Assembly (NCBI RefSeq): GCF_002105155.1
Contig: NW_019029021.1
Span: 62,001 to 126,000 of the forward strand
Source: Lobosporangium transversale
Lineage: Eukaryota
Direction: 5' to 3'
DNA length: 64,000 bases
Both the position numbers and the translations under genes were made by a program. This document shows, piece by piece, positions 4,207-43,098 of this stretch. Each line of letters starts with the position of its first letter. Position 1 is the stretch's first letter. A model generated the notes under the pieces. The model saw nothing but the letters and a program-made list of their open reading frames with translations. It was not told where the DNA came from and made no database searches.

Positions 4207-6161
4207 TCAATTCCTCGTCTCCTGCTTCTGCCCCTCATCACTCCCTGCCTTGCCATTTCCTTCCAAAATTGAGATGCTACTGCTTTCAACTGTAGCGGGC
4301 TCCCCTTTCTCTTGATCTCCCTCAACAGTTTCTGGATCAATGTCCAAGAATTCAATAGGATCCTGATTTGAGGCAAAAATCGCTGTCAGGATCATGCCAG
4401 TGCCCCCAAAGACCGCAAACGCATAGAATGCGGCTCTATATCCGCTCATCAGAGCCTCAGGTGTTCCACCTATGCCTTCGAATGTTTGAGACATAATAGT
4501 TCCAATTGCAAGGCCAATAGGACCACCCAGCTGTATGGCAACGTTGAAGACTGCTCCAACCACGCCTTGGTCCTCATCCTCAGCGTCAGCGACTACATTG
4601 ACTTGACAACACATCCACGTCGGTGAGAGGCCCAAGCAGTTCACGATGAAGGCAGGGAACGCAAAGTGCCAATAGGTTGTACCAGGTACAATTTGAGCAA
4701 AGATAATGGCTGATGTGATGATCAAAGTCCATCCGATCAACATAATGAACTTAGTACGGATATACTTGAATAGTCGGGTGACTGTATAGAGCCCAATGAC
4801 AAGGCCAACGCCGTGGACGATGTAACAGCAGGCTGTGATTAGAGGAGAGTATTTGAGCACATTCTGGAAAGTCAATGAGGTGAAGAAGATCATGGTGTTG
4901 TAGCATGCGGTCACACATATTATCACTAGGACGCTTGCTGAAAATCGACGGGAACTCCAGATACGGAAAGGCATGATTGGGTACTCGATCCGACGTTCCC
5001 AAAAGATGAAGCCGGCCAAAAGAACCAAACCCACAATAAAGGGCGTCAACGTTTGTGCAGATCCCCAGCCGACAGTCGTGGATTCAGAAAGATAGTAGAT
5101 TACCATGACAACACCGGCCATGAAAAGAGCGACGCCCAAATAGTCAACACGGCGATCTGTATTGCCAGGGTTATCATTGACATTGGAGATGATAAAGAAG
5201 CCAGCAACAGCCATTGTGATCGAAATAATGGCAGTGACAAAAAAGATCCAATACCAACCAATAGTAGCATCGAAAATACCACCCAGAAGGACGCCAGTCG
5301 TCTGGCCAATACAACCTGCACCACCGAACATGGAAAGAGCAAATGTCCGTTCAGGCCCTAATGGATAGGTTGTGGTGAGCAACGCAAGGGCTGAAGGGAT
5401 TGTGAGCCCAGCACCAGCTCCCTGTAGAGCTCGTGCGATAGACATGAAGATTGGATCCCTAGCGAAGCCGCAGACCAGCGACCAGATTCCAAACCAAGTG
5501 GTGCCAGTCAGGAACACCCTACGATGACCAAATAGATCTCCCTATAAGGATATCAGCGAATCAAGTACGGAAATACCTGTCAGTACGTCCACTACGATCT
5601 TTATAGTGCAGCAAGCTTTGAAGGCTCTATTATGGTTCAATAACTGGTGTAGGAGCAACTGTTTCTGCAGAATGAAGAAAGAATAAAAAAGCCTTACCAT
5701 CCTACCGCCAACTAAGAGGAATGCAGCATATGTAAGAGCATAGCTACTCACAATCCTACAAACGAGCAGGCAAAGCAATATGAGGGATACAAGTAAAAAT
5801 ATAAAGATAAAAAATAGGCGGGTTAGTAGGCAGCTTGGAGCACGACTTTCCTGGTACAGATACACAGAGGAGGAAAAGAGGGCGATATCAGGTAGGCATA
5901 TAAAACGATACACGCGCCTATTTCTTACCATTGGAGCTGATTTGGCTCATAATGAACATCACGCAGAATGGACGGGAGGGCGATGGTGACAGAAGCGACA
6001 TTGATAATATCAAGCATATTCGCCATAGAAATCAGGACGAGCAATAAGCCCTTTTTCTGATCTAGCGTCCTATACCAAGGAAGCTTTGCTTTTGCTGGTT
6101 GTGGATCCAAAGTATATACATGATTACTTGAGGTGATTGTGGATGCGTCTATATCAGCCAT
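4207..6161 (-). CDS. MFS drug:H+ antiporter-like transporter (DHA2/14-TMS type), 3 exons
   Basis: Exons about 6161-5928, 5755-5698 and 5542-4207 with GTAAG...AG introns. The junctions give QW-IVSSYALTYAAFLLVGGRM-GDLFGHRRVF (MFS motif A); also ARALQGAGAG and many hydrophobic helices. Confidence 0.92.
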
Positions 6162-20692: not shown

Positions 20693-20840
20693 TTAAAATA
20701 TGGCTAATGTGATCAAAATTCATATTACAAAAGCGCAAATAAAATACACCCCGTGACTGATCAGTAAAAAAAAAGTTCGTCAATGTTGTCTTTTAGTAAT
20801 TCATCATTGTACAAATAAGACTAACATTTCCTTTTCATCC

Positions 20841-22598
20841 ATGAGCAACTCTGGCCAAAATGAAATACCACAGCCAATTCACCCATTGCTGCTGCCAGAG
20901 ATTCTCGTCCTTATTGGCCCTCATCTCAGCCAAGCAACTGTTTTGCAGTGCGTCCTTGTCTGTAGTATATGGAATGTCTACCTGACGCCCTTTCTCTTTC
21001 AGCGTGTCAATTTGCCCAAGCGAAAGCAGCTTTCTCTGAGCGGCAGTGGCAAGCGAGCTTCACGTCCCATGATATCAGCTTTACAACGTAATGGCTCCAA
21101 CATACAAACCTTAATCTGCGCTGATAATAATACTATCCTACGCCAGATCATACCCTACTGCAACGCAATCGAGACTCTGGTGCTGGCCAAGATTACGACT
21201 GAGGTGGTCTCTATCTTGAGGCACTGCAAAGAGACGCTTACACAACTGGAGTTTACACCTGCTGCACGGCCCTCAGCTTCACTCCCTCTCCCAACATCGT
21301 CCTCCTCTCCAGCCTCGCTTTCTCCATTATCATCAGCACCATTACATTTCAGGACATCTTCATTTAGCAGCACTATTCCGCGACTGTTATGGACAGAGTC
21401 TAATGAGATATTAGAAGCTATTCTCCAGCTTTCAAAGCTTAAGCACCTTGTTTTAAGTTTCCTAGGGCTCAGAACTGCCGAACAGCTGACACCATTTTTC
21501 CAGTTTTGTCAACAGCATCTCGAATCATTAGAACTTCACAATACTGCTGTATTCGGGTGCTCGCCTAAGCCCATGGAATTCAACAAACTGCGATCGTTAT
21601 GCTTAGTAGAAAGCACCATGAGTTATCAAGCCCAAGCATTATTAGTGGTACAGTGTCCTTATCTTAAGCATATTACTTGGATTAGTAGCCAGTTTGTTAT
21701 ACCAATGAGCATAATAGGAGGGATCCGGAGGGGCGACAATCAAGAGGATCAATATAGTCAGAGTGGTCACGATGATAGGCGGGCGAATTTAAAGAGCCTA
21801 GAGATCTCGAACGGGATTGCTCTGGATGAAGACATAGCCTGTGCGCTAGAACGACTACCATCCTTGGAAACGATTTTGGTCCGAGAAAGTCTATTTGGGT
21901 CGCTTTGTTTACAAATTGTGTTAAAGTATCTACAGAATCAAATCCAAGTAATTGATGTTGCAGATTGTAAGGCCGTGACGCCTGAGATGGTGTGTATGAT
22001 GATGCTATCATGCCCAGCGTTAAAAAGCCTAACAGCGGATCGGATACGGGCCATGGATGTGATTGAGTTGTCGCCTACATCATCGCCGGCGCCAGCTGTA
22101 TGGCTCTCATCACCGTTGCCAACGTCACCTTCGCTTCAACAAAGGCGGCAAGAGTGGGTGTGTCATGGACTGGAAGAATTACGTGTCGTTTTTGTGGGAC
22201 CATCTTTATTGACACCGTACGAGACACAACATGCAATCTACAATCAAATCGCTAAATTGAGAAACCTGCGGCTCTTGAGTCTCGGACGCAATGCATCTAC
22301 ATCGTCCTACTCGGTCAAATCAGTATTAGATTTAACCCTGACAAATGGACTGACACAACTAGCACCATTGAGAGAGCTGCAGGAGTTTGACTTTTGCCAA
22401 ATGTACCATAAGATGGGAATGGATGAATACAAATTTATGTTGAAGAATTGGCCTAAGCTAGAGGTAATGCATGGGTACCTTCACACAGATAGTGACCGAG
22501 CAGCATTTGTAGAGAGTTTTCTGCAGAATGAGCGCCCAGGGATTAGACTGAAGCATAACCTTAAATATAAACGCACTCTGACACGAACAGTTTGCTAA
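20841..22598 (+). CDS. F-box/LRR (RNI-like) protein
   Basis: N-terminal HPLLLPEILVLIGPHL...CVLVCSIWN F-box-like motif, then LRR-like segments, WVCHGLEEL and GLTQLAPLRELQEF. Confidence 0.85.
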   Translation: MSNSGQNEIPQPIHPLLLPEILVLIGPHLSQATVLQCVLVCSIWNVYLTPFLFQRVNLPKRKQLSLSGSGKRASRPMISALQRNGSNIQTLICADNNTILRQIIPYCNAIETLVLAKITTEVVSILRHCKETLTQLEFTPAARPSASLPLPTSSSSPASLSPLSSAPLHFRTSSFSSTIPRLLWTESNEILEAILQLSKLKHLVLSFLGLRTAEQLTPFFQFCQQHLESLELHNTAVFGCSPKPMEFNKLRSLCLVESTMSYQAQALLVVQCPYLKHITWISSQFVIPMSIIGGIRRGDNQEDQYSQSGHDDRRANLKSLEISNGIALDEDIACALERLPSLETILVRESLFGSLCLQIVLKYLQNQIQVIDVADCKAVTPEMVCMMMLSCPALKSLTADRIRAMDVIELSPTSSPAPAVWLSSPLPTSPSLQQRRQEWVCHGLEELRVVFVGPSLLTPYETQHAIYNQIAKLRNLRLLSLGRNASTSSYSVKSVLDLTLTNGLTQLAPLRELQEFDFCQMYHKMGMDEYKFMLKNWPKLEVMHGYLHTDSDRAAFVESFLQNERPGIRLKHNLKYKRTLTRTVC

Positions 22599-22800
22599 AC
22601 AAAAAAGGAAAGCGCCACAAATTTTCTTGGAAAAAAGCCTCTGTAACGTGCATAAAAAAAAACTTTTCTCTGTTGAACTGTTAGTCAGCTTGCTTCTATT
22701 CACTATCTACCTAGAGCTCGGCTTCATCTGCGCTTATTGGCATTCATTTGGATGCTACATCTCTCTTCTAAAACTGTACGACTGCATGCATTATCACATT

Positions 22801-25564
22801 ATGGAGAATACTGAAGATTCACAAGATTTATCCACTTGTCACACTTTCAGTCCTGATAACACCATTTCGTCACCTTTACTACCTATTACATCATCTTCAC
22901 CTGAATCTTTAAGCTCGAGTGGCGCAGATCACATACATGCAGATGTCTCAGATGTGCAATATCAGCATTCAACTCCAGGGCGAAATCCAAGTTTAGATCC
23001 ACCTTTTCATGGTGTACTAGCGAACCCAACCCATCCTAGCGTGGTCAAAAACGGAGTTGAAGGAAGCGAGCTGAAAAGGGGAGAAGAAGACAAAAGGGAA
23101 AACGGAGAAGGAAGCGAAGAGGAAGACGAAGAGGAAAGTGAAGAGGGAAGTGAGGAGGAAAGTGAGGAGGAAAGTGAGGAGGAAAGTGAGGAGGAAAGTG
23201 AGGAGGAAAGTGAGGAGGAAAGTGAGGAGGAAAGTGCAAAAGAGAGCGAAGAGAGCCAGGAAAGCGCAGAAGAAAGTGAAGACGATTATAGGCACTTCTC
23301 GTTACTAGACTGGATCCTGCCGTATAGGTTCTTTAAGAAAAGTGAACCAAAGAAGCAATATCGTTTCCCAGTCGCATTTAACAGGATTCATAATATCTCT
23401 TCATTGTTCTCAGAGGCTCGTGGGCTGACGCGTGATATGCACCCAACCCTGGGTTCGCTACCAAAGCAGCAGTCAACACAACGCCATGATGACTTAGAAT
23501 CGATGGATGCGGAGGGTGCTTCTGGCATGTTGTGGCAAGCAGAAGGAGACAGCGATGAAGAGAGCGATGGAGACTGTTCTAGCGAAAATGATGAAGAGAG
23601 CGAAAGCGATGATGGAAGCAACAACAGCAACAGTGATGAAGTATATAATGAATCAGTACACCAGAGCCTCAAGGAAGTTAACGACAAGTATGATGAAATG
23701 TACGGCAAAGCTCTTTCCACATATCCAGCTTCAACAAGACCAGGGGAAGAATACACAGATGAAGAAGAGGGAGCAGTTGTTGATGATGTTGAGTTTGATG
23801 ACGTTGAGCTTGATGATGTTGAGCCTGGTGACACGAAGGCTGCAATGCAATCCGAGGAGACAGTTAAAGCCAAGGATGAATCCGGCACATCTTCCTCCCC
23901 GGAGCAGCGGCGAATCCATTTTTTTGGTGGCCAAGATGAGGTTTGGGATATTCCTGATGTGAAGCAATATGAGCAAGAGAGTATGCCGATAGTATACCGC
24001 ATGATGAGCCCTTCTAAGATCAGGGTGTATGTGCTGGATAATCGAATGGGGGAACACGAATATGCGAGTTTGTACAGCGGCGTGAAGGGGCTTGGTGGCA
24101 AATGGCTAAGCCCTTTACCCTATAATAAGATCCGCTCCAAAAAGGCAGCTCGCAGAAACAGATGCAATCCGTGGCTTATCACGCACATTGTAACTGACCT
24201 GAACACGTATAGGGAAGTTATGACGTTTGTGCCGATTAGCCGTCTTAGGGTAAGGAAACCTTTTTTTATTAATTATCATTTTGTTTGTAGCTGTACTCAT
24301 CCATATCGTACGTCAAAGCAATGTGAATGATGGTTTTTAAAAGAAATGCGCTTAAACATTTTTTTTAAAATAAAAAACCAAGGTCAACATCATGATTGTT
24401 AGTACGACATGGCTTGAACGCACCATACGCGAAAAGAAGGCGATCGACCCACGACCCTACGCCATACTGAATCCCCGACCGCAAAAGGCGCTCAATGCTT
24501 CAAGCACGCCTAGGCCAAACCAGAGTGGAGCCAGCACTCCATTTTCCAATCCTTCTACCGACAATGATCGCAAGGAGCCACAGACCGCACACGGATGTGC
24601 TGATAAAGACACTACACAAAACGAGAGCTGCTTTACTCTTGAAGCTCAATATTCAGGTCATAATGCACCTGCAAGTCCAGCCGATTCCAAGCATAGCGCT
24701 ATATATACAGGCCTGGATACTCCAACGGACATGATAAAGCCCAGTTCCTCCAAAATCATCGATCTTACTGATTGTTACGGCGTCTCTGGCCCTATTGGCA
24801 AGGATGGCTGTAGCGATCATAACGGTGTGTTGTTTAATTTCGTTTCTCAAATAACCGCGGACCGATCCTCTCTCTCTCATGTACCGCCAATAGCTGAGGA
24901 CGATCGGCCCAAAAAGAAAACACGTCTTTCTAACCATGCACACACTTCACTAGCAACTTATGCATATTCAGCTGTCTCGACACCTACAACTGAAACCTCT
25001 ACAGCCATTTCCAAGGCTACTGTAGATGAGAAACCTGTGACAGCTCCAGCAATGCCATTGCCATCTGATCGATCTAAAGTGTCTGATTGCCCTAGTGCTC
25101 CAAGTAGGCCAGCCCAAAATGATCAAGATCGGTCTCAGTTATCTGTGGGCAGCGCCTCTAAAACCGATGAATCCTACAGGGACGGCAAGCATCCTTTGGA
25201 ATGGCTCCTTAGTCAATCGTTCCCATCTTTAATACTTGAAGATATCTTTGAACAGGCCTCTGAATTTGTTCGTGCAGGGATTGATGCGCTAATGTCGAAG
25301 AGACAGAGTTCTGTGAATCTTTTAAATATGACAGCTACAGATATCCACACGTGGAGCAATGATGAACAACCAGAGGGCTACTCATCCCGGAAAGCGGAGA
25401 GCGAAAGCATTTATAGCTCGGATGTGTCGGGATATGGGGCCAAGAGATGCAGAACAATCTCTGGACATAATAGTGACGACAATGAGCAAGAGCTGAACCA
25501 GGCACGCAAGGTCCACATTTCGGAATCGCTGCTGAGTAGGATGAGGAGCTCAGAATCTGTTTAA
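22801..25564 (+). CDS. Acidic, disordered protein with a central BRCT-like domain, 2 exons
   Basis: Intron 24250-24382 (GTAAGG...AAG) joins the two ORFs in frame. RVYVL...VKGLGG...THIVT...IVSTTWLERTIREKKAIDPRPY resembles a BRCT domain. Confidence 0.7.
23131..23236 (+). repeat. Coding 12-bp tandem repeat (GAGGAAAGTGAG)n encoding (EESE)n
   Basis: Directly visible, about 8-9 units. Confidence 0.95.
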
Positions 25565-27984
25565 AACCATTATGTCTGATGTAAGCTGTACGGAAATATT
25601 GATAAGAGGCACGCAAGTAGAGACCAAATAACAGAATAATAACAACTAGCGAAAAAAAAAAAAAAAAGACACCGAATCCAGGGAACCAATACGACATAAG
25701 CGCACTGTGCAATGAGACCGCATGAGTACCATGGTACTAAAATCTGGGAGCTTGCCAAGAGTTTAATTAAGCCTTGAATGCATTGTTGTGATACTATCCC
25801 TTAAACCGTCAACCTGGCAAATTTGCCATTATAAATGGACTTAAAATCCAGCAATTCATGGGCATTGCCTTGAAATTTTATTTCGATGTCGAAATAAATG
25901 ACCGAAAACTAAACTGTCATGGAGCTATCCTGGCTTCTTTATCTGTGCCAATAAAAAACTCCTGAAGGCTTTCGCATGACACTAGCATCCTCTTGGGGGC
26001 CCATTGTGTTGTTTATTTATTGACTGGTGTAATAGCAGTGATAATATTCGCCATAGTATCGACTTGAAAGGAGGGCAATCTGAGTTGATTCATTCTACCG
26101 CACCTTAGAGCTTGCTCGGCAAGACTTGATTTGTCACATCATTTGCTTCCTCGTCTTCTTGATATATCTGGGTTGGTAAACACTGCTAATAGAGTTTGTT
26201 AGGCCTGTTGAAACCAGAGGGAACCACAGCAACATATCATACCCAAGATGATACAAATATCTCTGTTGGAGTGAGTGGTGAACTGTGTGTGGTTCAGATG
26301 TAGTGGACATAAACGGCGAAAGAATGCATCGAAAAGATGTGAGCGATTATGAGAGCAAGGAAGAAGGGGTTGGTATGCCTGTTCAAGTCCTTGGCAAGAG
26401 AGCATGAGTAGCAGTTGTGATCAAAAGTTGATTTCGGTGAGTCCGCATAACAATGGTATAGTTTCTAGACTCTATCTTCCACGTACAGCATTGCACTATT
26501 GGTGTTTTCAGACCTGGCACCAATCATGCGAGCGAGGTATTTCTTTTCCTGAGGATTCCTTGTGTTAAACGGCCAGACAGAAAGCTTAGAAGAGTTACAG
26601 ACACAACGGTGAAAAAAATATATGTGAGCAAACAGTTGCTGTGTTTATTTGTTGTCTGCACATGCCTTCTTTCATCGCGGGCTTTTTTTTTTTTTAATTG
26701 TTTCGCAAATCTTGTTTCCTTTTTTGTTCGTCAATCACTGTGTGCACGAATAAGCAGCTGAAGCATCTCTTTGGTTTCTGTACATGTGTAGACACATTTT
26801 ACATCGCGGCGTCTTATTTATTTTCTGCACCAAAACACAAAACACAAGCGTTTTCCATTGGTGCCTCCAGAAGAAATAAACAAACTTTATTTTGGCGGCC
26901 ACTCCACAATCATGCCATGGTTATAACAATCCCTAGGAAAGGATGAAACGCGTCGGTATTAATCTCGCTTCTGTAATTCTAAATGCATATATTTTGGTGA
27001 TTGGTATCAACTATCAAGTTCGCACATACACACACCAAACGACCGCCAAAAACCACCACTCTCGCTTCTGCTCTCCCTCCATCCACAAGGCGCTGCGTAA
27101 TATCACCATTAACAAGGCACCGTCCAGTAAGAAAGGGTGCTTAGCTAGCTTTTACTCCAAGCAATAAGCACATCACCTATCTCCGCCATTGATGCCGGAA
27201 CCTGAGAGCCAACGAATATCTCTGCTTTAACGCAATAGTATTGGGGCTGTTGGAGCAAAGAACGACATCTGAACCCATTCTCTGATAAAAAAGACTTTTT
27301 TTTTCTTTAGTTGTTACCTTTGAAAGGATATAATCACCAAGTCATATCTGTTAATGCATTTATTACCCCTGTTCAAAATTATAAATCTTCTTTTATTCAT
27401 TAAATTCCTCACAAAGCACAAAACGAGAGCCAGTGCAAACAAAAGAAACTGAAAAAAAAAAAAAAAAAAATTGTGTAAAAAGGATCGACATCGACACTGT
27501 ATGCTGTATATGGAGATGATTTTTTCGAATGCTCACTTTGGTATCTCAATGTTATTATTTCCAATCTGCCGTTCATGCGAGAGCTTGTATTTATTTGTCA
27601 ATCTCTGCTATTGACTGGGACAAAACCCCAATCCAAACAAAGGAACTGAATAAAGATTGATGTGGCCTGTGAAGCAAAGGATCGATATCAAAACTATATG
27701 AGACAATGATAAAACTCATCATCAATCCAGGATATAAAAAGGGATCATTGTCTTCCTCCTTCAAAGTCCCATCCCTTTTACCACTGCCACTTGTTCCTGT
27801 ATCTTTCCCTCAATATTCTTTATCTATTCGCTTTGAATCTTTACACCATAAAAAAGCTCATCCTTTTATACCTTTGTCGCTCTTTTTTTTTTTTTTTTTT
27901 TTTTTTCTTTTTCATTTCTTTTTCATTTCTTTTCATCACCACCATTTTTCCTTTTTTCTTTCTCTTTTCGCTTAGATATTGACC

Positions 27985-30900
27985 ATGGGGCTGAAGTCCT
28001 TCTTCAAACTGGTTGCGGATCGCGGGGTTTTACCTTCGGAAACTGACGTGGGCACTTTCTTGGCGGCAAATCCTGACCATTCTGTTCATTTAGATCTCCT
28101 CGGTACGTTCTATTACGACATCCTCCGCAGAGTCGTCCATGCAAAGATGAAAAACGAAACCATCATTGATGTAGGAAGGTCCCTGGCACTCGAGATAAAG
28201 GATCTTTTCACAACGGACAACCTGACTATACATATTGATGGGGAACCTTGTACTGAGAAAGAAAAAGCAAGGACAGAACGGCAAGCCATAAGACAAAAAA
28301 ATATGGACGCTTTGGAGAACAATATGAGCACCTTCGAGAGAAATTCTCGGAGTGGGGTATGGACTCGTCCTCAAGTCATGAGGCGCATCCAGAAGGGTCT
28401 TCGAGAAGTCCACACCCTGAGCGTCCAGGACAAGGATCAGCTGGCAACAGGCCTTAGTTCTGTCTTCGATGTCTGTCTGTGTGCATATGAAGCGGACCCA
28501 TGCATAGGGTGCCATGATGAGGAGAATGATAGGATCGTGATATCCCAAGACTCTAATTTTTTTGCGTACGAACGAGTCTGCTTCCTAGTGCGACCCCTTC
28601 CGCACCGTAGACGGAAGTTTGGGGTTTACGACGTAGACAACGTTATCCAAGCACTAAGACTGCCAACACACGCGCATCTGGTGTTATTCTGTGCCATCGC
28701 AGGCAATGACTACTCAAGGAACCTCGAGACGTTAGGCCCGGTTAATAATCTTCGATTAGTTCGAAAGATTGCGTGGAACAAGAACTACAATAAAATGCCT
28801 CAAGATTACCTCGGGGAAGCTAATAAGGTGTTGGGAAGGAACGTAGCTTCTGAGGAAGGCCGTTTCAGTGTAGCTCTCCGCATTTTTACTTCCGGCCATC
28901 AAACGTCGGCCCAAGCGTTACCATCGAACAATGAGTTCGATAACTTCAAGCAGCGTCTACTCAATGAAAAGGATCTTCGCCATAGAATGGCTCAGCAAAG
29001 GCGAGCGCAGCGCCGCAGAACGTAAGAAAGCTCAAGCTATAGTTTTTGGCCTTGAAACCAGACGTCCCCAATACTAATCGTTAGTCCCTTTCTTGAATAA
29101 TGTAGAGGCGTACCATCATTCTATATAGCGGAAGGGTCACATAGAAACCAGTTCCGGCCCATCTTTTCTGACAAGCCGAGCATATTGAATGGGCGCACAG
29201 TTGATATCAGTAACTGTCGTCAGCACGATAGGCCGGGCCTTAAGCATCCACCACGTCGGAAAAAGGCAAAAAAGAAGCAACAGAAAAAACAAAAGCGGAA
29301 GCACAAAGGCAAGAAGCCCCACAGGGCTAAAAAAGAAGGTGCACCAATTAGGAACTTGAAGGATGCTACGAAGGTTGATCACAGCTACAGCAGTAAGCAC
29401 CCTATCAAGGCCTTAACAATTGGGTCCCTTAAGGCCTCCATGGCAAGGAAAGGCGGACTGGACGCAGATGAAAGGGATAGTATTGCAAGCCAGATCCGAG
29501 GGGCAGTTGTTGTCCTCAACCGACTACGCCGCTATGCATACTGGGCGATTGCCTTGGACATTGAGAGGATCATGCGGTTACCAGGGGCAGCAAAGTCGAG
29601 GAAAAAGGCACTGGACGAGGTCTTGGATAGCAATGATTATTCCTTCCGTCTCGCCACCCTTCTTTTGAGTGGTCAAGGTGGCCCCAATTCAGCTTACGCG
29701 AGGGCAAAAAAACAAGGAAAGGCGGTAGAAACGCCCCATTATCTCCTCGCTTATGAACATTTCAAGGCCACCACTGAACTTTCCCCAATAAAGGAAATAG
29801 ACATCACATTGGGGGACGTCCAAGGCTTTGATCCCAAAAAGATCACATTTCCAAGAGCGTCAGACTTACTAATGGGCCAAGTACAGACATCATTAAGGCA
29901 GCACTACAGGAACGCAATGGTATAGCTTGTGTAGGGGTATTTTCATGCATATTCTGCAATCGAATGCTCTTTATTCAGACTCTTTTTTTATTTTTTTTCT
30001 AGTTTGATGTCGAGAAAACAAACGAAGATATGAGCGACATTGAGTTTTTTTTGCGGGAGAACAAAAAAGTGAAAAAATACTCAGACTTTCCTACGTCTCC
30101 CTGGCCACCCGGGTATGTGTATCTGTCTGAACACGCCTTAGTTGACATCCTCTGGGCGAACGAAGATACCAAGCAGCTGCTGGAGCATATTCTGCCTCTC
30201 AATAATCCTTCCAAGACTGCAATGTATGAGTGTGTACAGGGAACAAAAGGGGTTTTGATACAGGCTCTCTTTTGTGACATTGGAGGTGATCGCATGGTTC
30301 GTGGATATCAAGACAAAGTATCCCTGCAGTCACAGGACAAAGATCTAACTCGGTTCAAACTCAAAGGAACGATTTCTACCAACGGTCTAGTTCTGAATCT
30401 ACTTGCCTATGACACAACCCAGACGAAGAGACAGCAGCAGTCTGACGTAGATGAAGAAGACCCCAGCCAAGGACTGGAGCTTTCTCAGGGATTTCTCAAC
30501 ACGACGTGTTCAAAGGCGGCCGGTGAAGACCTAACAGATGAAGACTATGCAAACATAAACTGGAAGAGGAGCTCCAAGCTGCTTGAAAACGTTGAGCTCA
30601 CATTCAACAAACCAGGGCGATGCCCATCCGCAAACACCACAACTATCGTCGGATGTGATCCTGGTATTGTTAACGCCCTTACGTTTTCCTCGCTGGACCC
30701 TCACAACCCTAACTTGCGGCAAACGGTAAAGGTGAGAAGCAGGTTCTTGTACCTCCCTGTCCTCCGCTTCAATCACCTGTTGAACAAAAGGAAGCGTGAA
30801 AAAGGAATGATTGAGGTTGAGAGCGCCATCCCTGTGTTTGGAAGGGATACGTATAATGAGTACTTTCAATGGATGAACGAGGAGTCTCAGACACAGACAG

Positions 30901-31479
30901 GATCAACGAATTTGGATGTGCTTCAAGAGTTCTACGAGTCCAGATGGCACCTGAAAAAAAAATGGGACCTACGAAAGGCTCAACGAGCTACGTTCGACTA
31001 CGCGGTACAGCGAGTGTTGAAGATGCTTGGGGATAAAGGAGTACTTGTCGTCGGCCTAGGGTCCTTTGAAAGTAGTAAAGGAGTTCCCAGCAAGCCACTG
31101 CTATAACGAGACATCTTGTCACACAGGTATGGCTGTTTTTAAAAAATTAAGCAAAGCTGGAAAGCCATAAAACCCTTGCTAATAAACGACTGCCATTTGA
31201 AACGCTTAGGTCAAAGCACGCGGACACTTCGCTGTAGGAGCGCACGAATTTTACACCAGCGCCCGCTGTCCCCGACCCCTCTGCGATAGCTTTTTAGAGA
31301 CGGTGTACCCTCGCTCTAAATATTGCCGGACATGTAAGGTATTCTTCGACTGTGACGCAGTAGGGGCGGAAAACATCGCAAGAATCGGTCTTGCTCAAAT
31401 TGAGAGGCAAGAGAGGCCTGCAAAGTACAAGCCCACGGAAGAGTCGCCTGCTCCGGCTGCAAAGCGCGCACGACGCTAG
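27985..31479 (+). CDS. XPG/FEN1(PIN)-nuclease fused to a Fanzor/TnpB-like RuvC, 4 exons, about 1080 aa, one 1-nt frameshift
   Basis: Exons 27985-29021, 29106-29919, 30003-31126, 31210-31479 with GT-AG introns. XPG motifs MGLK, HLDL, IDG..K..R, EAD, SQDSN, GNDY..LG. RuvC motifs VGCDPG, HEFYTS, CPRPLC..CRTC, DCDAVGAENI. Frameshift at about 31095. Confidence 0.85.
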
Positions 31480-31525
31480 ACACAAGTATTTGGGTGCCGG
31501 CACACCCACAAAAAATTTGTAAGTT
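31480..31525 (+). ncRNA. Hairpin just 3' of the Fanzor-like stop; candidate omegaRNA scaffold part
   Basis: TGGGTG (31491-96) pairs with CACCCA (31503-08) and ACAA (31482-85) with TTGT (31517-20). Position matches where TnpB/Fanzor guide RNAs lie; no expression evidence. Confidence 0.3.
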
Positions 31526-32569
31526 CTGTTTATTTTCGTCTCCTGTATCCATCCTCTCTAATCTTTTGCCCCTGAATTTCTGGACTAACTTTAAAAACCG
31601 TACAGATCAACAGATAAGGTAATTTGGCCTTTTACCATTCTAGGGTCCTTAAGTATCTTCTAAAACCAGCTGGACCCTCTTGTTTGCTTTCAAGAAGATC
31701 TGTCGCAACCTGCTTGCCTGAACTCCTGCCAGAGCAATTATACCTCAAATTACTACGTATTTCCTGTCCCAAATAAGCAAACTTTATTACCGCCTTTAAA
31801 AAAACATTGATTGAATTGATGATTTGTTACGACACAAAATGGTGACCAACTTCTCCTCGGGCCTATCTGATCCGCTTCAAATGGATCTCGTAGCTTTCAA
31901 GAGAGCTGGGACAAAATGAATTCGCTTTCAAGCTTAAGGGGACATTTCGAGAGTCAAACAAAGCTGTCGCTGCTCTCTCTATAGTTAATATATTGCCTTT
32001 GAAAAAACAAGATAAAGAACAGGTAGCCTCAACTTTAGCACAGCCTGGTCTACTTAAAGCCAATTAAATTGCCTAAGGTTAGGCTTGAATGGCGGCCGAT
32101 GTGCTCATGACAGGCAGAGGCCCTTTTTTTAATTGTTTTGTATTGGTTATTTGGTGGTGATGGAATGATGCTTGTTTATAAAAAAAAATTGAAAATACGT
32201 TACCATTATATCATAAGCAGAAACAAAAACGGTGGTCATGGATACATACAACTGATTCTCTGAAACGCCATGAGGATGCTCTTTTTTCTCTTCGTCTCTT
32301 TAATTGTGTTGCCCTCCGTCTTTTGAATATCCAACCAAAGCGCATAACTGTTTGTTTACAATGCAATCACATCCAATGGCAGTCACCTTATTTCAAATAT
32401 AATGCTAGACTTGTTAGATAAATACAAAACCGGCCATTGTCTATTAGTTATTTATGATCTAAAAGTTGTCTTATTAAAACATCTATACTTGCACTCGAGC
32501 TTTTTGACCCTTGTTCTGGCTCTGTTCGGTCCAACTGATGTATCAATGCGTTCACCTCCGAAGCGCTAC

Positions 32570-39363: not shown

Positions 39364-40857
39364 CTAGATTATGTTATGTGATTCAAAGAACTCTTCCAGC
39401 AAAGCAGCTGCATCTTCCTCGCCGTTCAGAACACCATGCACGCCTCTAAATCTTGGCCAATTGTTCACCATCCATGTCGCATCCTCAAGCTGCATTCGCT
39501 GCTGATAATCTGTAACCCTTAGCGTATCTAGTCTCTTCAGATTGGCTAGTTCATCCAGACCTGCTCTTAGTCTTATGTCCAGTGTCCGACTGTAGAGCTG
39601 TGTTAGGTCAAGATGTTCTAGCCGAGTCAGCTTGCCAAGCTGCTTAAACGCAATACGTGCCTTTGCCATCCCTTCTTCAGTCTCTTGATCAATATCTGCC
39701 TCAAGAGTGATACTCAAGTGAGTCAATCCACTACATACCCATTCTGCTCCATTGACAATCTCTGATACTGTAGTTTTAGATCCTTCCAGTCTCTTCAGTC
39801 GTGGACAATTTGATAAAATAGCCTGAGCAACACTGCTATCTCCAGCGAGCACTAACGTCTCAACTGTCTCACAGAGTCTCCGAAGCCTTGTCTTCTGTAC
39901 TAGCTGTCCATTATCCATCACTTCTTGCTTGTCAGCTAGCAACTCTTGCAAAGAGAGCTGATCGAATATAGCATAAGGGAGGTCTAACTGCCTTAATCCT
40001 GTCATCCGTCTGAGAATTGCCGCCATATCCTTGTCTTCTATTATCTCACAGGAACATAGATCTGACAAGTTATTCAGAGCCCAAGGGTGCTGAAGGAATA
40101 CCCTGTAGAAGTCTGACTGATCTTCTTCGTCCCAGCTCTCAATGTCCAATGAACGCAATGCTCGACAATTCCTTACTAACATCCCGAGGCAATACCAGCT
40201 GCTGTACGGATGCGGAGGGTTGGTTACCCTGACATTCGAAATACACAGTGTGCGTATGTTTGGGAAAATATACTCGCTGTCCTCATTACTAAAGAAGTTG
40301 ATAGGTAGCTGGATGGACACTTCTTCCAATTTCAAGTGATGAAGTCTCTTGCATACTTGAAGGAATAGATCGGCTCCAACATCAATAACTTTGCCATAAA
40401 CCTCCAAGTGCCTGAGATTGATGCATTCCAATAAAGCCTCCCAGAGCTCTGACGAACACGAAAACTTAATATTTTCGTTCAAGCAAAGGCTAGTGATGAT
40501 GGAGCCATAAGCCTTGATATGGTTGAAAAGGTGGATTGGTTTGGACCATTTACATTCATCTCCAAATACGATAGACTTGAGTCCCTGCAGTGATCCATAC
40601 TTCTTTGGGAAAGAAGCCTTAAAGGTGTAAGACTCAAATGTTATCTCTTCAATGTATTCCTTGTGCTTCTGTACTGCTTTACTATTAGGATCTCCTTGCG
40701 GTCCGACAGTGATTTTCCTCCATATGAGGCTGATAAGAGTTTTATGAAAAGCCTTGGAGACGCGGATACAGTTCAGAAGGTCGCTTCGCTCGAGCAGCTC
40801 AGCAATGAGTAAGAGGATTTCTGGAATCTGTAAGGGATTCAGCTTAAGGTTGTCCAT
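39364..40857 (-). CDS. F-box/LRR family protein, copy A
   Basis: Intact intronless ORF: MDNLKLNPLQIPEILLLIAELL...CIRVSKAFH, EWVCSGL, GLDELANLKRL. Confidence 0.88.
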   Translation of the reverse strand: MDNLKLNPLQIPEILLLIAELLERSDLLNCIRVSKAFHKTLISLIWRKITVGPQGDPNSKAVQKHKEYIEEITFESYTFKASFPKKYGSLQGLKSIVFGDECKWSKPIHLFNHIKAYGSIITSLCLNENIKFSCSSELWEALLECINLRHLEVYGKVIDVGADLFLQVCKRLHHLKLEEVSIQLPINFFSNEDSEYIFPNIRTLCISNVRVTNPPHPYSSWYCLGMLVRNCRALRSLDIESWDEEDQSDFYRVFLQHPWALNNLSDLCSCEIIEDKDMAAILRRMTGLRQLDLPYAIFDQLSLQELLADKQEVMDNGQLVQKTRLRRLCETVETLVLAGDSSVAQAILSNCPRLKRLEGSKTTVSEIVNGAEWVCSGLTHLSITLEADIDQETEEGMAKARIAFKQLGKLTRLEHLDLTQLYSRTLDIRLRAGLDELANLKRLDTLRVTDYQQRMQLEDATWMVNNWPRFRGVHGVLNGEEDAAALLEEFFESHNII

Positions 40858-41578
40858 GTTGCGAAGAAACAAAGTCGATGGAGTGAGAAAAACAAATGTG
40901 GCTGGATTTTACAGTCCACGCTTGATTTCAAGACAAATCTATCCTATCCAAAAAGCGCGAAATAAATCGTCACTAAAATAATTAGCAACCTCCCTAAAAG
41001 TGAAGGGACAAATCTTTCACATTTATGACATTTCCCTTAAGGAGGCTGCCAAATAAATGTGCGGCTATTATTTTTTCAAATTGGATAGAATACTGTATTC
41101 ATTTCTACGCTTGATTTTAAGTCAGGTTTATACGTCAAAAGCGAGATTGAATTCCACTAACCATTGCATCTACTTTATCTCAACGTTGTGAAAAGAATCG
41201 TTTAAGAGAAAGGAGCAATAGCAAGAAAAAGAAGAAGGACGAATCAAACAAAGACGAGATTCAGTTATCCCTTCATCTAAACCTACAGTAGATCAAGTTG
41301 CTGCACTACTCGTTGGGCAGCAAAATAAAGGCCCTATTTTGAGACAAACCCATGCTGCGCATAGGCTATCCAAGTTGGGGAGATGTTCTCCACTTTTGGA
41401 TAGTTTCTGCAATGGCAATGCTTTGCGCATATGTTCATTACTGTGGCGACTCTTATCACCTTCATTATCATTTAGGTCGAATAACAGCTATCAGGAAGTA
41501 GATGTGCACTAAAAGATCCATGTGTAAGATCTCTGTCTCTATATCAGGGTATGACCTGGTAATACTTTCCTCTATATT

Positions 41579-43098
41579 CTATCTTCTATTGGATATGTTA
41601 TGTGATTTAAGGAGCCCTTTCAGCAAAGCAGCTGTCTCTTCCTCACCGTTCAGAACACCACCCACACCTCTGATCTTTGGCCTGTTGTTCATCATCCATG
41701 TCGCATCCTCAAGCTATATTCGCTGGCAGCGATCAAATCTGAAGCTTAGGCAATTTAGTCTCTTCAGATTGGCTAGTTCATCCAGACCTGCTCTTAATCT
41801 CATGTCCAGTCTCCGTCTATCTAGACTCCTTGGGTCCCATCCTGTTAGGTCAAGACTTTCAAGCCGAGTCAGTTTACCTAGTTGTCTAAACGCAATACGT
41901 GCCTTTGCCATCCCTCCCTCAGTCTCCTGATCAATATCTGCCCTAAGATAGATATTCAAGCGAGTTAACCTAGTACAAACCCATTCTGTTCCATCGACAA
42001 TCTCTGATACTGTAATTACAAATCCATCCAGTATTTTCAGTCGTGGGCATTTTGATAAAATAGTCTGGCCACCAATACCGTTATTTATCACGAATACCAG
42101 CGTCTCAACTGTCTCACAAAGCCTCCAAAACCTTGTCTTTCGTACTAGTTGTCCATTATCCATCACTTCTTGCTTGTCAGCTAGCAACTCCTGCAAAGAG
42201 AGCTGACCGAATTTACACGCAGGGAGGCATAGCCATTTTATTTCACTCATCCGTCTAAGAAGCGTTGCTATATCCTCGCCCTCGATTGTGATATAGGCAC
42301 GTAGGTCTGACAGATTATTCAGAGTCCAAGGATGCTGAAGGAGCGCTACCTTGTAGAAGTCTCCTTCATCTCGGCTGTGACCCTTAATGTCCAGTGAACA
42401 CAATGCTGGGCAGCTCCTTGCTTGCATCCCGAGGCAATACCAGTCGCTGTACGAATGCAGAAGGTCGGCTATCCTGACATGGTCAATACGGAGTGTGTGT
42501 TTATTTGAGAAAATATATTCACTGTGCTCTGTACTAAGAATATTGACAGGGAGCTGGTGAATGGTTACATGGTCCAATTCCAAGTGCCGAAGCTCCTAGT
42601 AGACTTGTAGGAATAAGTCAACTCCAACATCGACATCTTTGCGATTAATCTTCAAGTGGTTGAGGTTGGTGCATTCTAACAAAACCTTCCAGAGCTCTGG
42701 CGGATACTCAATACATTCGGTTGCATGAAAGCTAGTGATGATGGAGCTGTGGGCCTTGATCTGATTGATGGCGTGGATCGGTTCGGGCTATGAGCACCAC
42801 CATGTGTATGTGATGGACTGAAGCCTATGTAACGGCTCATGCCTCTCTGGAAATGAGTTATTAAACTTGTAGCTTTCAAATGTAATTTCTTCAATGTATT
42901 CGTTATGCTTCTGCACTGCTTTGCTGTCAGGTTCTCCTCCCTGTCCGATTGTGATTATCCTCCAAGTGAGTCCGATAAGAGTTATATGAAAAGCCCTGGA
43001 GACGTGGATACAGTTTAGAAGTCTCTTTGCTCGAGCAGCTCGGCAATGTGTAAGAAGATTTCCGGGATCTCGAAGGGATTCAGCTTAAGGTTGTCCAT
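41579..43098 (-). pseudogene. F-box/LRR family copy B, disrupted
   Basis: Full-length homology to copies A, C and D, but with in-frame stops (about 42676, 42596, 41714) and frameshifts in the 5' part. Confidence 0.85.

Follow-up and report, generated by a model that had tools for sequence, protein, structure and literature searches.

The 64,000-nucleotide stretch of Lobosporangium transversale DNA analyzed here (contig NW_019029021.1, positions 62,001 to 126,000; hereafter the window) bears at 27985–31479 (+) a single gene of four exons, in which a domain of the Exo1/FEN1/XPG fold is joined to a Fanzor1 nuclease. This fusion almost certainly constitutes a real protein family and apparently represents a conserved, undescribed architecture within Fanzor1. 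The copy in the window is part of a decayed multicopy element that ends near 31616.

Exon 1 (27985–29021, +) encodes the Exo1/FEN1/XPG-family 5′ nuclease domain of about 340 residues, as assigned from phmmer, AlphaFold2, Foldseek and conservation. Its protein sequence matches Rad2 (phmmer, E 1.5e-4), and its AlphaFold2 model—with a predicted local distance difference test score (pLDDT) of 95.6—matches FEN1, Exo1, Rad2 and XPG in Foldseek, the best match being FEN1 at E 5.8e-10. In the model of P0005, a natural full-length relative, residues 2–308 align with Exo1 at Z 21.4 and with FEN1 at Z 20.6, a tie (VIA-align). The XPG/FEN1 call that a preliminary description of this DNA had made for the N-terminus is hence borne out by structure. 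Pfam returned no XPG family for exon 1 and one weak XPG_I_2 match among the nine relatives first found with exon 3 (seven of them named Mortierella). The acidic motifs align with the EAD, DSD and DY motifs of Exo1, with five active-site residues aligned to Exo1. Of the seven acidic residues that we take to form the active site of the superfamily, the window copy keeps D37, D85, E169, D171, D189 and D242. Conservation was assessed on 95 sequences, counting each residue where it is covered: D37 is found in 45/46, D85 in 56/58, E169 in 67/70, D171 in 70/73, D189 and D191 in 73/74 each, and D242 in 76/78. The seven acidic residues are thus 96–99% conserved, compared with only 20 of 343 columns that reach 90%, in a family whose median identity is 26%. 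Fold and acidic motifs are shared with the Exo1/FEN1/XPG (Rad2) superfamily at large, from whose solved members the fused domain, to which no subfamily can be given, differs by its 12–17% identity and by being repeat-borne and joined to a predicted RNA-guided nuclease.

Exon 2 (29106–29919, +) encodes a Lys/Arg-rich linker followed by the start of the Fanzor part and is collinear with all nine first relatives at 27–55% identity. The linker is poorly ordered in the P0005 model (pLDDT below 50 at 387–414). Exon 3 (30003–31126, +) contributes a TNG motif in the WED domain (30378), the RuvC-I DPG (GCDPG, codon 30657), a glycine strand and a 1-nt frameshift near 31095, and exon 4 (31210–31479, +) the relocated glutamate (31246), a C4 zinc finger, the RuvC-III aspartate (31354) and the stop codon—the three catalytic positions being where the preliminary description had placed them. 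The fold of the C-terminal part was taken from P0005, which is 31–56% identical exon by exon. Its full-length model (pLDDT 85) ranks SpuFz1 first and FEN1 third among structure matches, and residues 435–1181 align with SpuFz1, PpFz1 and GtFz1 at Z 15.9–17.7 over about 470 residues (VIA-align). The highest value, 17.7 for SpuFz1, supports the earlier call of a Fanzor/TnpB RuvC domain. The canonical RuvC-II strand reads VVGLG and has no glutamate, and an alternative one lies in HEFYTSARC (codon 31246). In Fanzor1, the canonical RuvC-II glutamate is replaced by an alternative one six residues before the zinc finger (PMC10711439). The window copy has about 170 residues from D to TS and a CPRPLC..CRTC finger, and this spacing and finger fit the Fanzor1 pattern D-X(125,275)-[TS][TS]-XX-C4 finger-X(5,50)-RD (PMC3627910). 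A TDG motif in the WED domain is described as a Fanzor1 feature (PMC10711439); the window copy has TNG at this place and the relative P0002 has TDG.

Sequence searches see less of this part. Exon 4 matches Pfam PF07282 at E 4.7e-5, just below the curated cut-off, and the same family lies above the cut-off in five of the nine first relatives, below it in two and is absent from two. No solved sequence matched exon 3 alone significantly (best E 1.1); with the family profile, six weak matches came up in the PDB (E 0.06–0.8), all to Exo1, XPG/FEN1 or SpuFz1. In the Atlas, P0005 falls among the 58 members of a cluster whose only label is Cas12f1-like TNB (0.98). The fusion is easily overlooked because Pfam detects only the zinc-finger part. 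Exon 4 is identical to sibling P0168 at 88 of 89 residues.

The linkage of both halves, as proposed in the preliminary description, recurs in relatives. Among the nine first found, four have the whole of exon 1 together with the Fanzor part and three more have part of exon 1. A profile search gave 1517 matches at E 0.001, and relatives were drawn from the best 150 of these. The resulting 155 proteins include 24 of at least 900 aa: the N-terminal domain is present in all 24 and accompanied by the C-terminal part in 23 (17 of 18 when seed sequences are left aside). Five of the long two-part proteins are known only from assembled-contig collections. At least 11 relatives of 342–390 aa cover mainly the N-terminal domain. 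Named members belong to Mortierella, Linnemannia, Actinomortierella, Entomortierella and Dissophora—five genera of Mortierellaceae—and are annotated as hypothetical, Rad2 nuclease, PIN domain-like, putative transposase or Cas12f1-like. Phylogenies of the N- and C-terminal halves, built for 28 proteins, are largely congruent: 10 of 11 well-supported splits of the N-terminal domain recur in the C-terminal tree and 9 of 14 in the reverse direction, with a Mantel rho of 0.50, an agreement inflated by five near-identical copies. At RuvC-I, nine of 25 long relatives have DPG, a motif called near exclusive in Fanzors (PMC10711439), 11 have D-x-G with a hydrophobic or small x and five are unaligned. 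The RuvC glutamate is found in 18 of 25 and RD in 17 of 25, most of the remaining rows being without the last exon. Distant members read DLG, DFG, DIG, DAG or DMG, yet retain the relocated glutamate. P0086, P0117, P0137 and P0144 are uninterrupted fusions of 1102–1281 aa on contigs of 4–5.5 kb and form a separate branch in both trees. A word-based search of longer proteins with exon 1 recovered none of 3948 candidates though fused relatives exist, a failure of sensitivity, and a distant-relative profile search returned its own seed only. No relatives were found in viral contigs (including for P0117) or prokaryote genomes, where short patterns make for weak nulls.

The exons are separated by three GT–AG introns at the positions given in the preliminary description, the first two of which preserve the frame, as it had also claimed. 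Intron 1 (29022–29105, +; 84 nt) runs from GTAAGA to TAG with a branch-like ACTAAT at 29073 and lies at the domain boundary; intron 2 (29920–30002, +) and intron 3 (31127–31209, +) are of 83 nt each, the latter with a branch-like GCTAAT at 31178. Intron 2 is joined in a contig of run X7, probably an RNA run (none of the runs that contain this DNA being registered as RNA), and intron 3 in a contig from the same run that derives from a diverged copy and has depth 8.6; both are unjoined in three DNA runs. For intron 1 the support is comparative—its position and phase are the same in L002, a metagenome locus of a distant relative. The position of intron 2 is matched in the metagenome loci L001 and L004, and by eye in L003, that of intron 3 in L001 and L004. 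All three introns recur at equivalent places in distant relatives. An in-frame TAA opens intron 1 exactly at the domain boundary (29022–29025), and likewise in L002 (intron 243–349). Hence, retention of intron 1 would yield a stand-alone nuclease of 346 aa. None of the outcomes by which the preliminary description would have been overturned came up, and chance or a mis-splicing artefact was rejected as the source of the fusion. A TnpB from a bacterial contaminant is ruled out by the spliceosomal introns and the fungal relatives.

As it stands, the spliced coding sequence runs into a stop at codon 985. Restoring one nucleotide gives a full gene of 1081 aa, so that the correction and the length of about 1080 aa put forward earlier agree with the contigs of four runs and with three sibling models. 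Other copies carry an extra base behind 31095 (depth 213.6/222.1 in X7, 20.2/20.2 in X1, 128.8/278.6 in X2 and 13.5/21.4 in X6), and the reading frame passes the site near 31095 uninterrupted in three sibling gene models; hence, the 1-nt break is real. It is not the only lesion, two substitutions having been missed earlier. Residue 191 (codon 28555) is N in the window copy, D in 73 of 74 relatives and kept as D in the siblings P0028, P0031 and P0093. In RuvC-III, RD has become CD (C at codon 31351) with the catalytic D kept, and all three covering siblings have R; CD is a lesion of the window copy, not a family trait. The frameshift and the substitutions at the XPG site and in RuvC-III make the window copy a dead pseudogene.

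Its closest siblings, spread over 11 contigs of Lobosporangium transversale, comprise 12 gene models, about 60–99% identical where aligned and all truncated (223–694 aa). The summed contig depth of two DNA runs, which is not a copy number, amounts to 83–745 over 26500–31707 and drops at 31708 to about 10. One contig of the flank has its start at 31589, and another contig end hangs loose at 31616; together with the depth drop these place the probable right end of the element at 31606–31616 (+). Upstream, 26500–27984 belongs to the repeated element by depth and by its many variant contigs, and the repeat extends left beyond 26500. No frame of at least 130 aa was found in 26500–27984, no transposase frame in 26500–31616, no target-site duplication of at least 9 nt and no second copy of the gene within the window, where repeat finders reported A/T runs only. 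A weak candidate for a left inverted repeat at 22669–22681 (+) matches the reverse complement of 31602–31614 at 12 of 13 positions; 5 of 300 shuffles reach this match, the 13-mer was picked after the match had been seen, and an unbiased scan was not above the null. Positions 30517 and 31490 are joined in contigs from two of the DNA runs, marking a derivative with an internal deletion and a retained 3′ end. In Linnemannia, six copies fall into one 90% cluster. Helitrons carry a RepHel gene and a 3′ hairpin close to a CTRR end; here, the 3′ hairpin is set about 110 nt inward of the right end, and that end is not CTRR.

Directly behind the coding sequence lies a conserved 3′ motif (31479–31518, +) with a 6-bp hairpin (31491–31508), a candidate for the first stem of a guide (omega) RNA. 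The window and L004 share exact runs of 9 and 11 nt behind the stop codon, in register around a hairpin of divergent sequence. In this comparison of two sequences, none of 636 window tiles and none of 1000 shuffles equalled the 9-nt/11-nt match. The hairpin has z −1.7 in the window and −4.7 in L004; RNAalifold of the two 3′ ends gave no compensatory pairs and Rfam no match. In solved Fanzor1 RNAs the first stem measures 7 bp, and the RNA of PpFz1 has in addition a 4-bp second stem before the guide (PMC11423790). The motif is followed by a candidate fourth intron in the non-coding 3′ end (31519–31605, +; 87 nt; GTAAGT, CTAAC, CAG)—the sole match to the strict intron pattern on both strands of the 64 kb. 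Its removal would allow a short stem that ends in GATA at 31616 and after which a guide would begin (−2.3 kcal/mol with the candidate intron spliced out, 0 with it retained), while the unspliced 3′ end forms a competing stem; L004 has a weak GATA-ending stem at the equivalent place without an intron. In both the window and L004 the candidate scaffold begins where the coding sequence ends or within that end, and, thus, a guide would have to be cut from a longer RNA. With small energies and a candidate splice, the fit of this 3′ end to a Fanzor1 guide RNA, possibly spliced, is suggestive. In a diverged subfamily both ends of the candidate intron are kept and 8 letters replace 45 inside it (31527–31573). 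Other contigs match from 31530 with unrelated sequence before this point, so that part of the 3′ end occurs without the gene.

Exo1 resects 5′ ends. Fanzor1 proteins are omegaRNA-guided endonucleases, SpuFz1 leaving 5′ overhangs, and breaks by the related TnpB drive element copying by recombination (PMC10432273). We favor, at roughly even chances, the reading that an RNA-guided cut followed by 5′ resection promotes copy-in of the element by recombination. Where copies are intact, a guide RNA from the right end of the element would likely be loaded into the Fanzor part, which would cut insertion sites that lack the element; the fused domain would then likely trim the 5′ strands of the cut, and recombination would copy the element back. 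Movement to new sites would likely depend on a transposase acting in trans. We infer the guide RNA, the activity of either domain in the family and the Fanzor cut as the substrate of the trimming domain. A conserved 5′ nuclease in the same chain might most simply be the enzyme that makes the cut a substrate for recombination—a proposition that we hold with middling confidence.

Several points weigh against this reading. Neither activity nor guide RNA nor an empty target site was observed, and no left end, target-site duplication or transposase was found. Since all 12 siblings are truncated, no intact copy of the window subfamily was seen. The full-length profile favors two-part proteins, so that the search demonstrates a common fusion and no absence of stand-alone forms. 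The fold does not separate Exo1 from FEN1, and the superfamily has other substrates. At the 3′ end, the gapped alignment is marginal (reached by 56 of 2000 shuffles and 37 of 632 tiles), and the whole of 31440–31640 folds no better than shuffles (z +1.7).

Of the three introns for which the preliminary description had called for junction reads, two are joined in the probable RNA run, and no junction of intron 1 is among the 15 of 28 joints listed from read contigs. This missing junction, together with the stop that opens intron 1, would also suit a nuclease gene that stops at 29025 next to a separate Fanzor gene, the two merged only by gene predictors, as would the relatives of 342–390 aa and one published FZ1 row of a sibling species that begins at the linker. 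We deem this very unlikely, as intron 1 matches the spliced introns 2 and 3 in size class and signals, has the same position and phase in L002, and uninterrupted fusions of 1102–1281 aa exist in contig collections. A single chain might nevertheless harbor domains that act apart, the trimming domain serving transposition or repair at flaps and junctions left by a transposase in trans, and the fusion coupling expression only. The long, poorly ordered basic linker, the boundary position of intron 1—retention of which would free the nuclease—and the tied matches to FEN1 and Exo1 speak for this; we consider it rather unlikely, given that a distant relative, too, reads in frame from one side of intron 1 to the other and that congruent trees fit long joint selection. 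Some members of the superfamily remove RNA primers, and the trimming domain may accordingly act on RNA or an R-loop, either in 5′ maturation of the guide or in removing RNA from the hybrid for turnover. The excision that the scaffold start demands favors such a role. Solved Fanzor1 proteins, which do not have the domain (the match to them starts at residue 435), still gain their RNA in yeast (PMC10432273), and we regard an action on RNA as unlikely.

The remaining alternatives concern what kind of unit the gene belongs to. The fusion might be the whole mobility machine, with guided cut and resection spreading the element by repair synthesis without a transposase; the lack of other long frames in 26500–27984, the copies on 11 contigs and the six clustered Linnemannia copies are in line with this. 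A transposase may, however, be encoded further to the left or supplied in trans, as has been suggested for Spu-1 (PMC10432273), homing requires target homology and alone leaves dispersed copies unexplained, and the GATA end could mask the TA duplication of a cut-and-paste element, all of which renders it distinctly unlikely. A domesticated host DNA-repair gene family would account for the wide spread in Mortierellaceae and the conserved catalytic residues and intron positions; against the many dispersed decayed copies, the internal-deletion derivative and the sharp repeat boundary, it is extremely improbable that the element is not selfish. Apart from the favored reading of resection-aided copy-in, one might draw the boldest picture: transposase-free selfish elements with one two-nuclease protein, in which a spliced guide, a Fanzor cut, Exo1-like resection and repair-driven copy-in cooperate and the splicing of guide and intron 1 serves as switches. 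This we consider unlikely.

Engineered fusions of Cas nucleases with exonucleases couple a guided cut to end trimming; in contrast, the fungal fusion is natural and long conserved. Compared with Fanzor1 (SpuFz1, PpFz1, GtFz1; PMC10432273, PMC11423790), fold, DPG, relocated glutamate, zinc finger, RuvC-III aspartate and TNG/TDG are alike, as are the multicopy element in which no transposase of its own is seen and the hairpin behind the stop codon. Unlike Fanzor1, the family has an active-looking 5′ nuclease of about 340 aa and a linker in front, lengths of 1080–1300 aa compared with up to about 800 (PMC10711439), D-hydrophobic-G for DPG in distant members and a candidate intron in the guide RNA region. 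TnpB of IS200/IS605 and IS607 shares RuvC and zinc finger as well as the model of a vacant-site cut that would trigger recombination (PMC10432273), but relies on host resection, whereas here spliceosomal introns occur and no TnpA was seen. The unclassified Mucor Fanzor1 elements MCi-2 and MCi-5 likewise come from a fungus, have conserved 3′ ends and show no clear inverted repeats; they differ by carrying Crypton or Harbinger fragments (PMC3627910); a motif search in the protein file of that study found no XPG-like N-terminus.

No description of the fusion was found in the literature searched, subscription papers and bioRxiv supplements lying largely outside that search. Papers joining Fanzor with XPG or with Mortierella were not found, and those pairing Fanzor with FEN1 or Exo1 concern, as listed, genome-editing tools. 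XPG is absent from the main text of PMC10432273, PMC11423790, PMC13565253 and PMC6338049 and has 0 occurrences in the supplements of PMC10432273, PMC10711439 and PMC10530073 and in one file of PMC3627910; in PMC10711439 and PMC10530073, fused, fusion and PIN refer to laboratory tags only. Members of the family are nonetheless present in published tables: the supplement of PMC10432273 lists sibling ORZ22893.1 (P0087) as FZ1, and by eye five of 18 Mortierella rows from published Fanzor tables and five more rows (including Podila) start with the same motifs. These motif-bearing rows are named hypothetical protein.

Elsewhere in the window, a two-exon gene with an acidic repeat lies at 22801–25564 (+), inside the element if 22669 is its left end. 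It presumably contains a BRCT-like stretch across the intron, seen by eye; Pfam and the Atlas (<0.9) gave no support. F-box/leucine-rich-repeat-like frames are found at 20757–22598, 39364–40908, 41714–42595, 59781–61391 and 62005–63516, the last four looking closely related by eye; two of these frames were scanned and gave weak F-box-like Pfam matches. Further frames encode a chromodomain fragment at 58966–59385 (−; Pfam E 6e-7), likely a retrotransposon remnant, a kinase-like protein at 55793–57583 (+) with weak Pfam matches and, by eye only, a membrane transporter-like protein at 4207–5541 (−).

PMC10432273 gives the biological role of Fanzors as unknown. A large Fanzor1 branch that keeps a catalytically complete 5′ nuclease in one chain lets the leading idea, cut then copy, be tested directly by a single point mutant. 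What matters is the family—the window copy is dead and intact-looking relatives exist, with the full-length candidates P0004, P0005, P0064 and P0105 in databases—which provides a natural counterpart of the nuclease–exonuclease fusions of genome editing. A spliceosomal intron inside a guide RNA would, if confirmed, be a further new feature.

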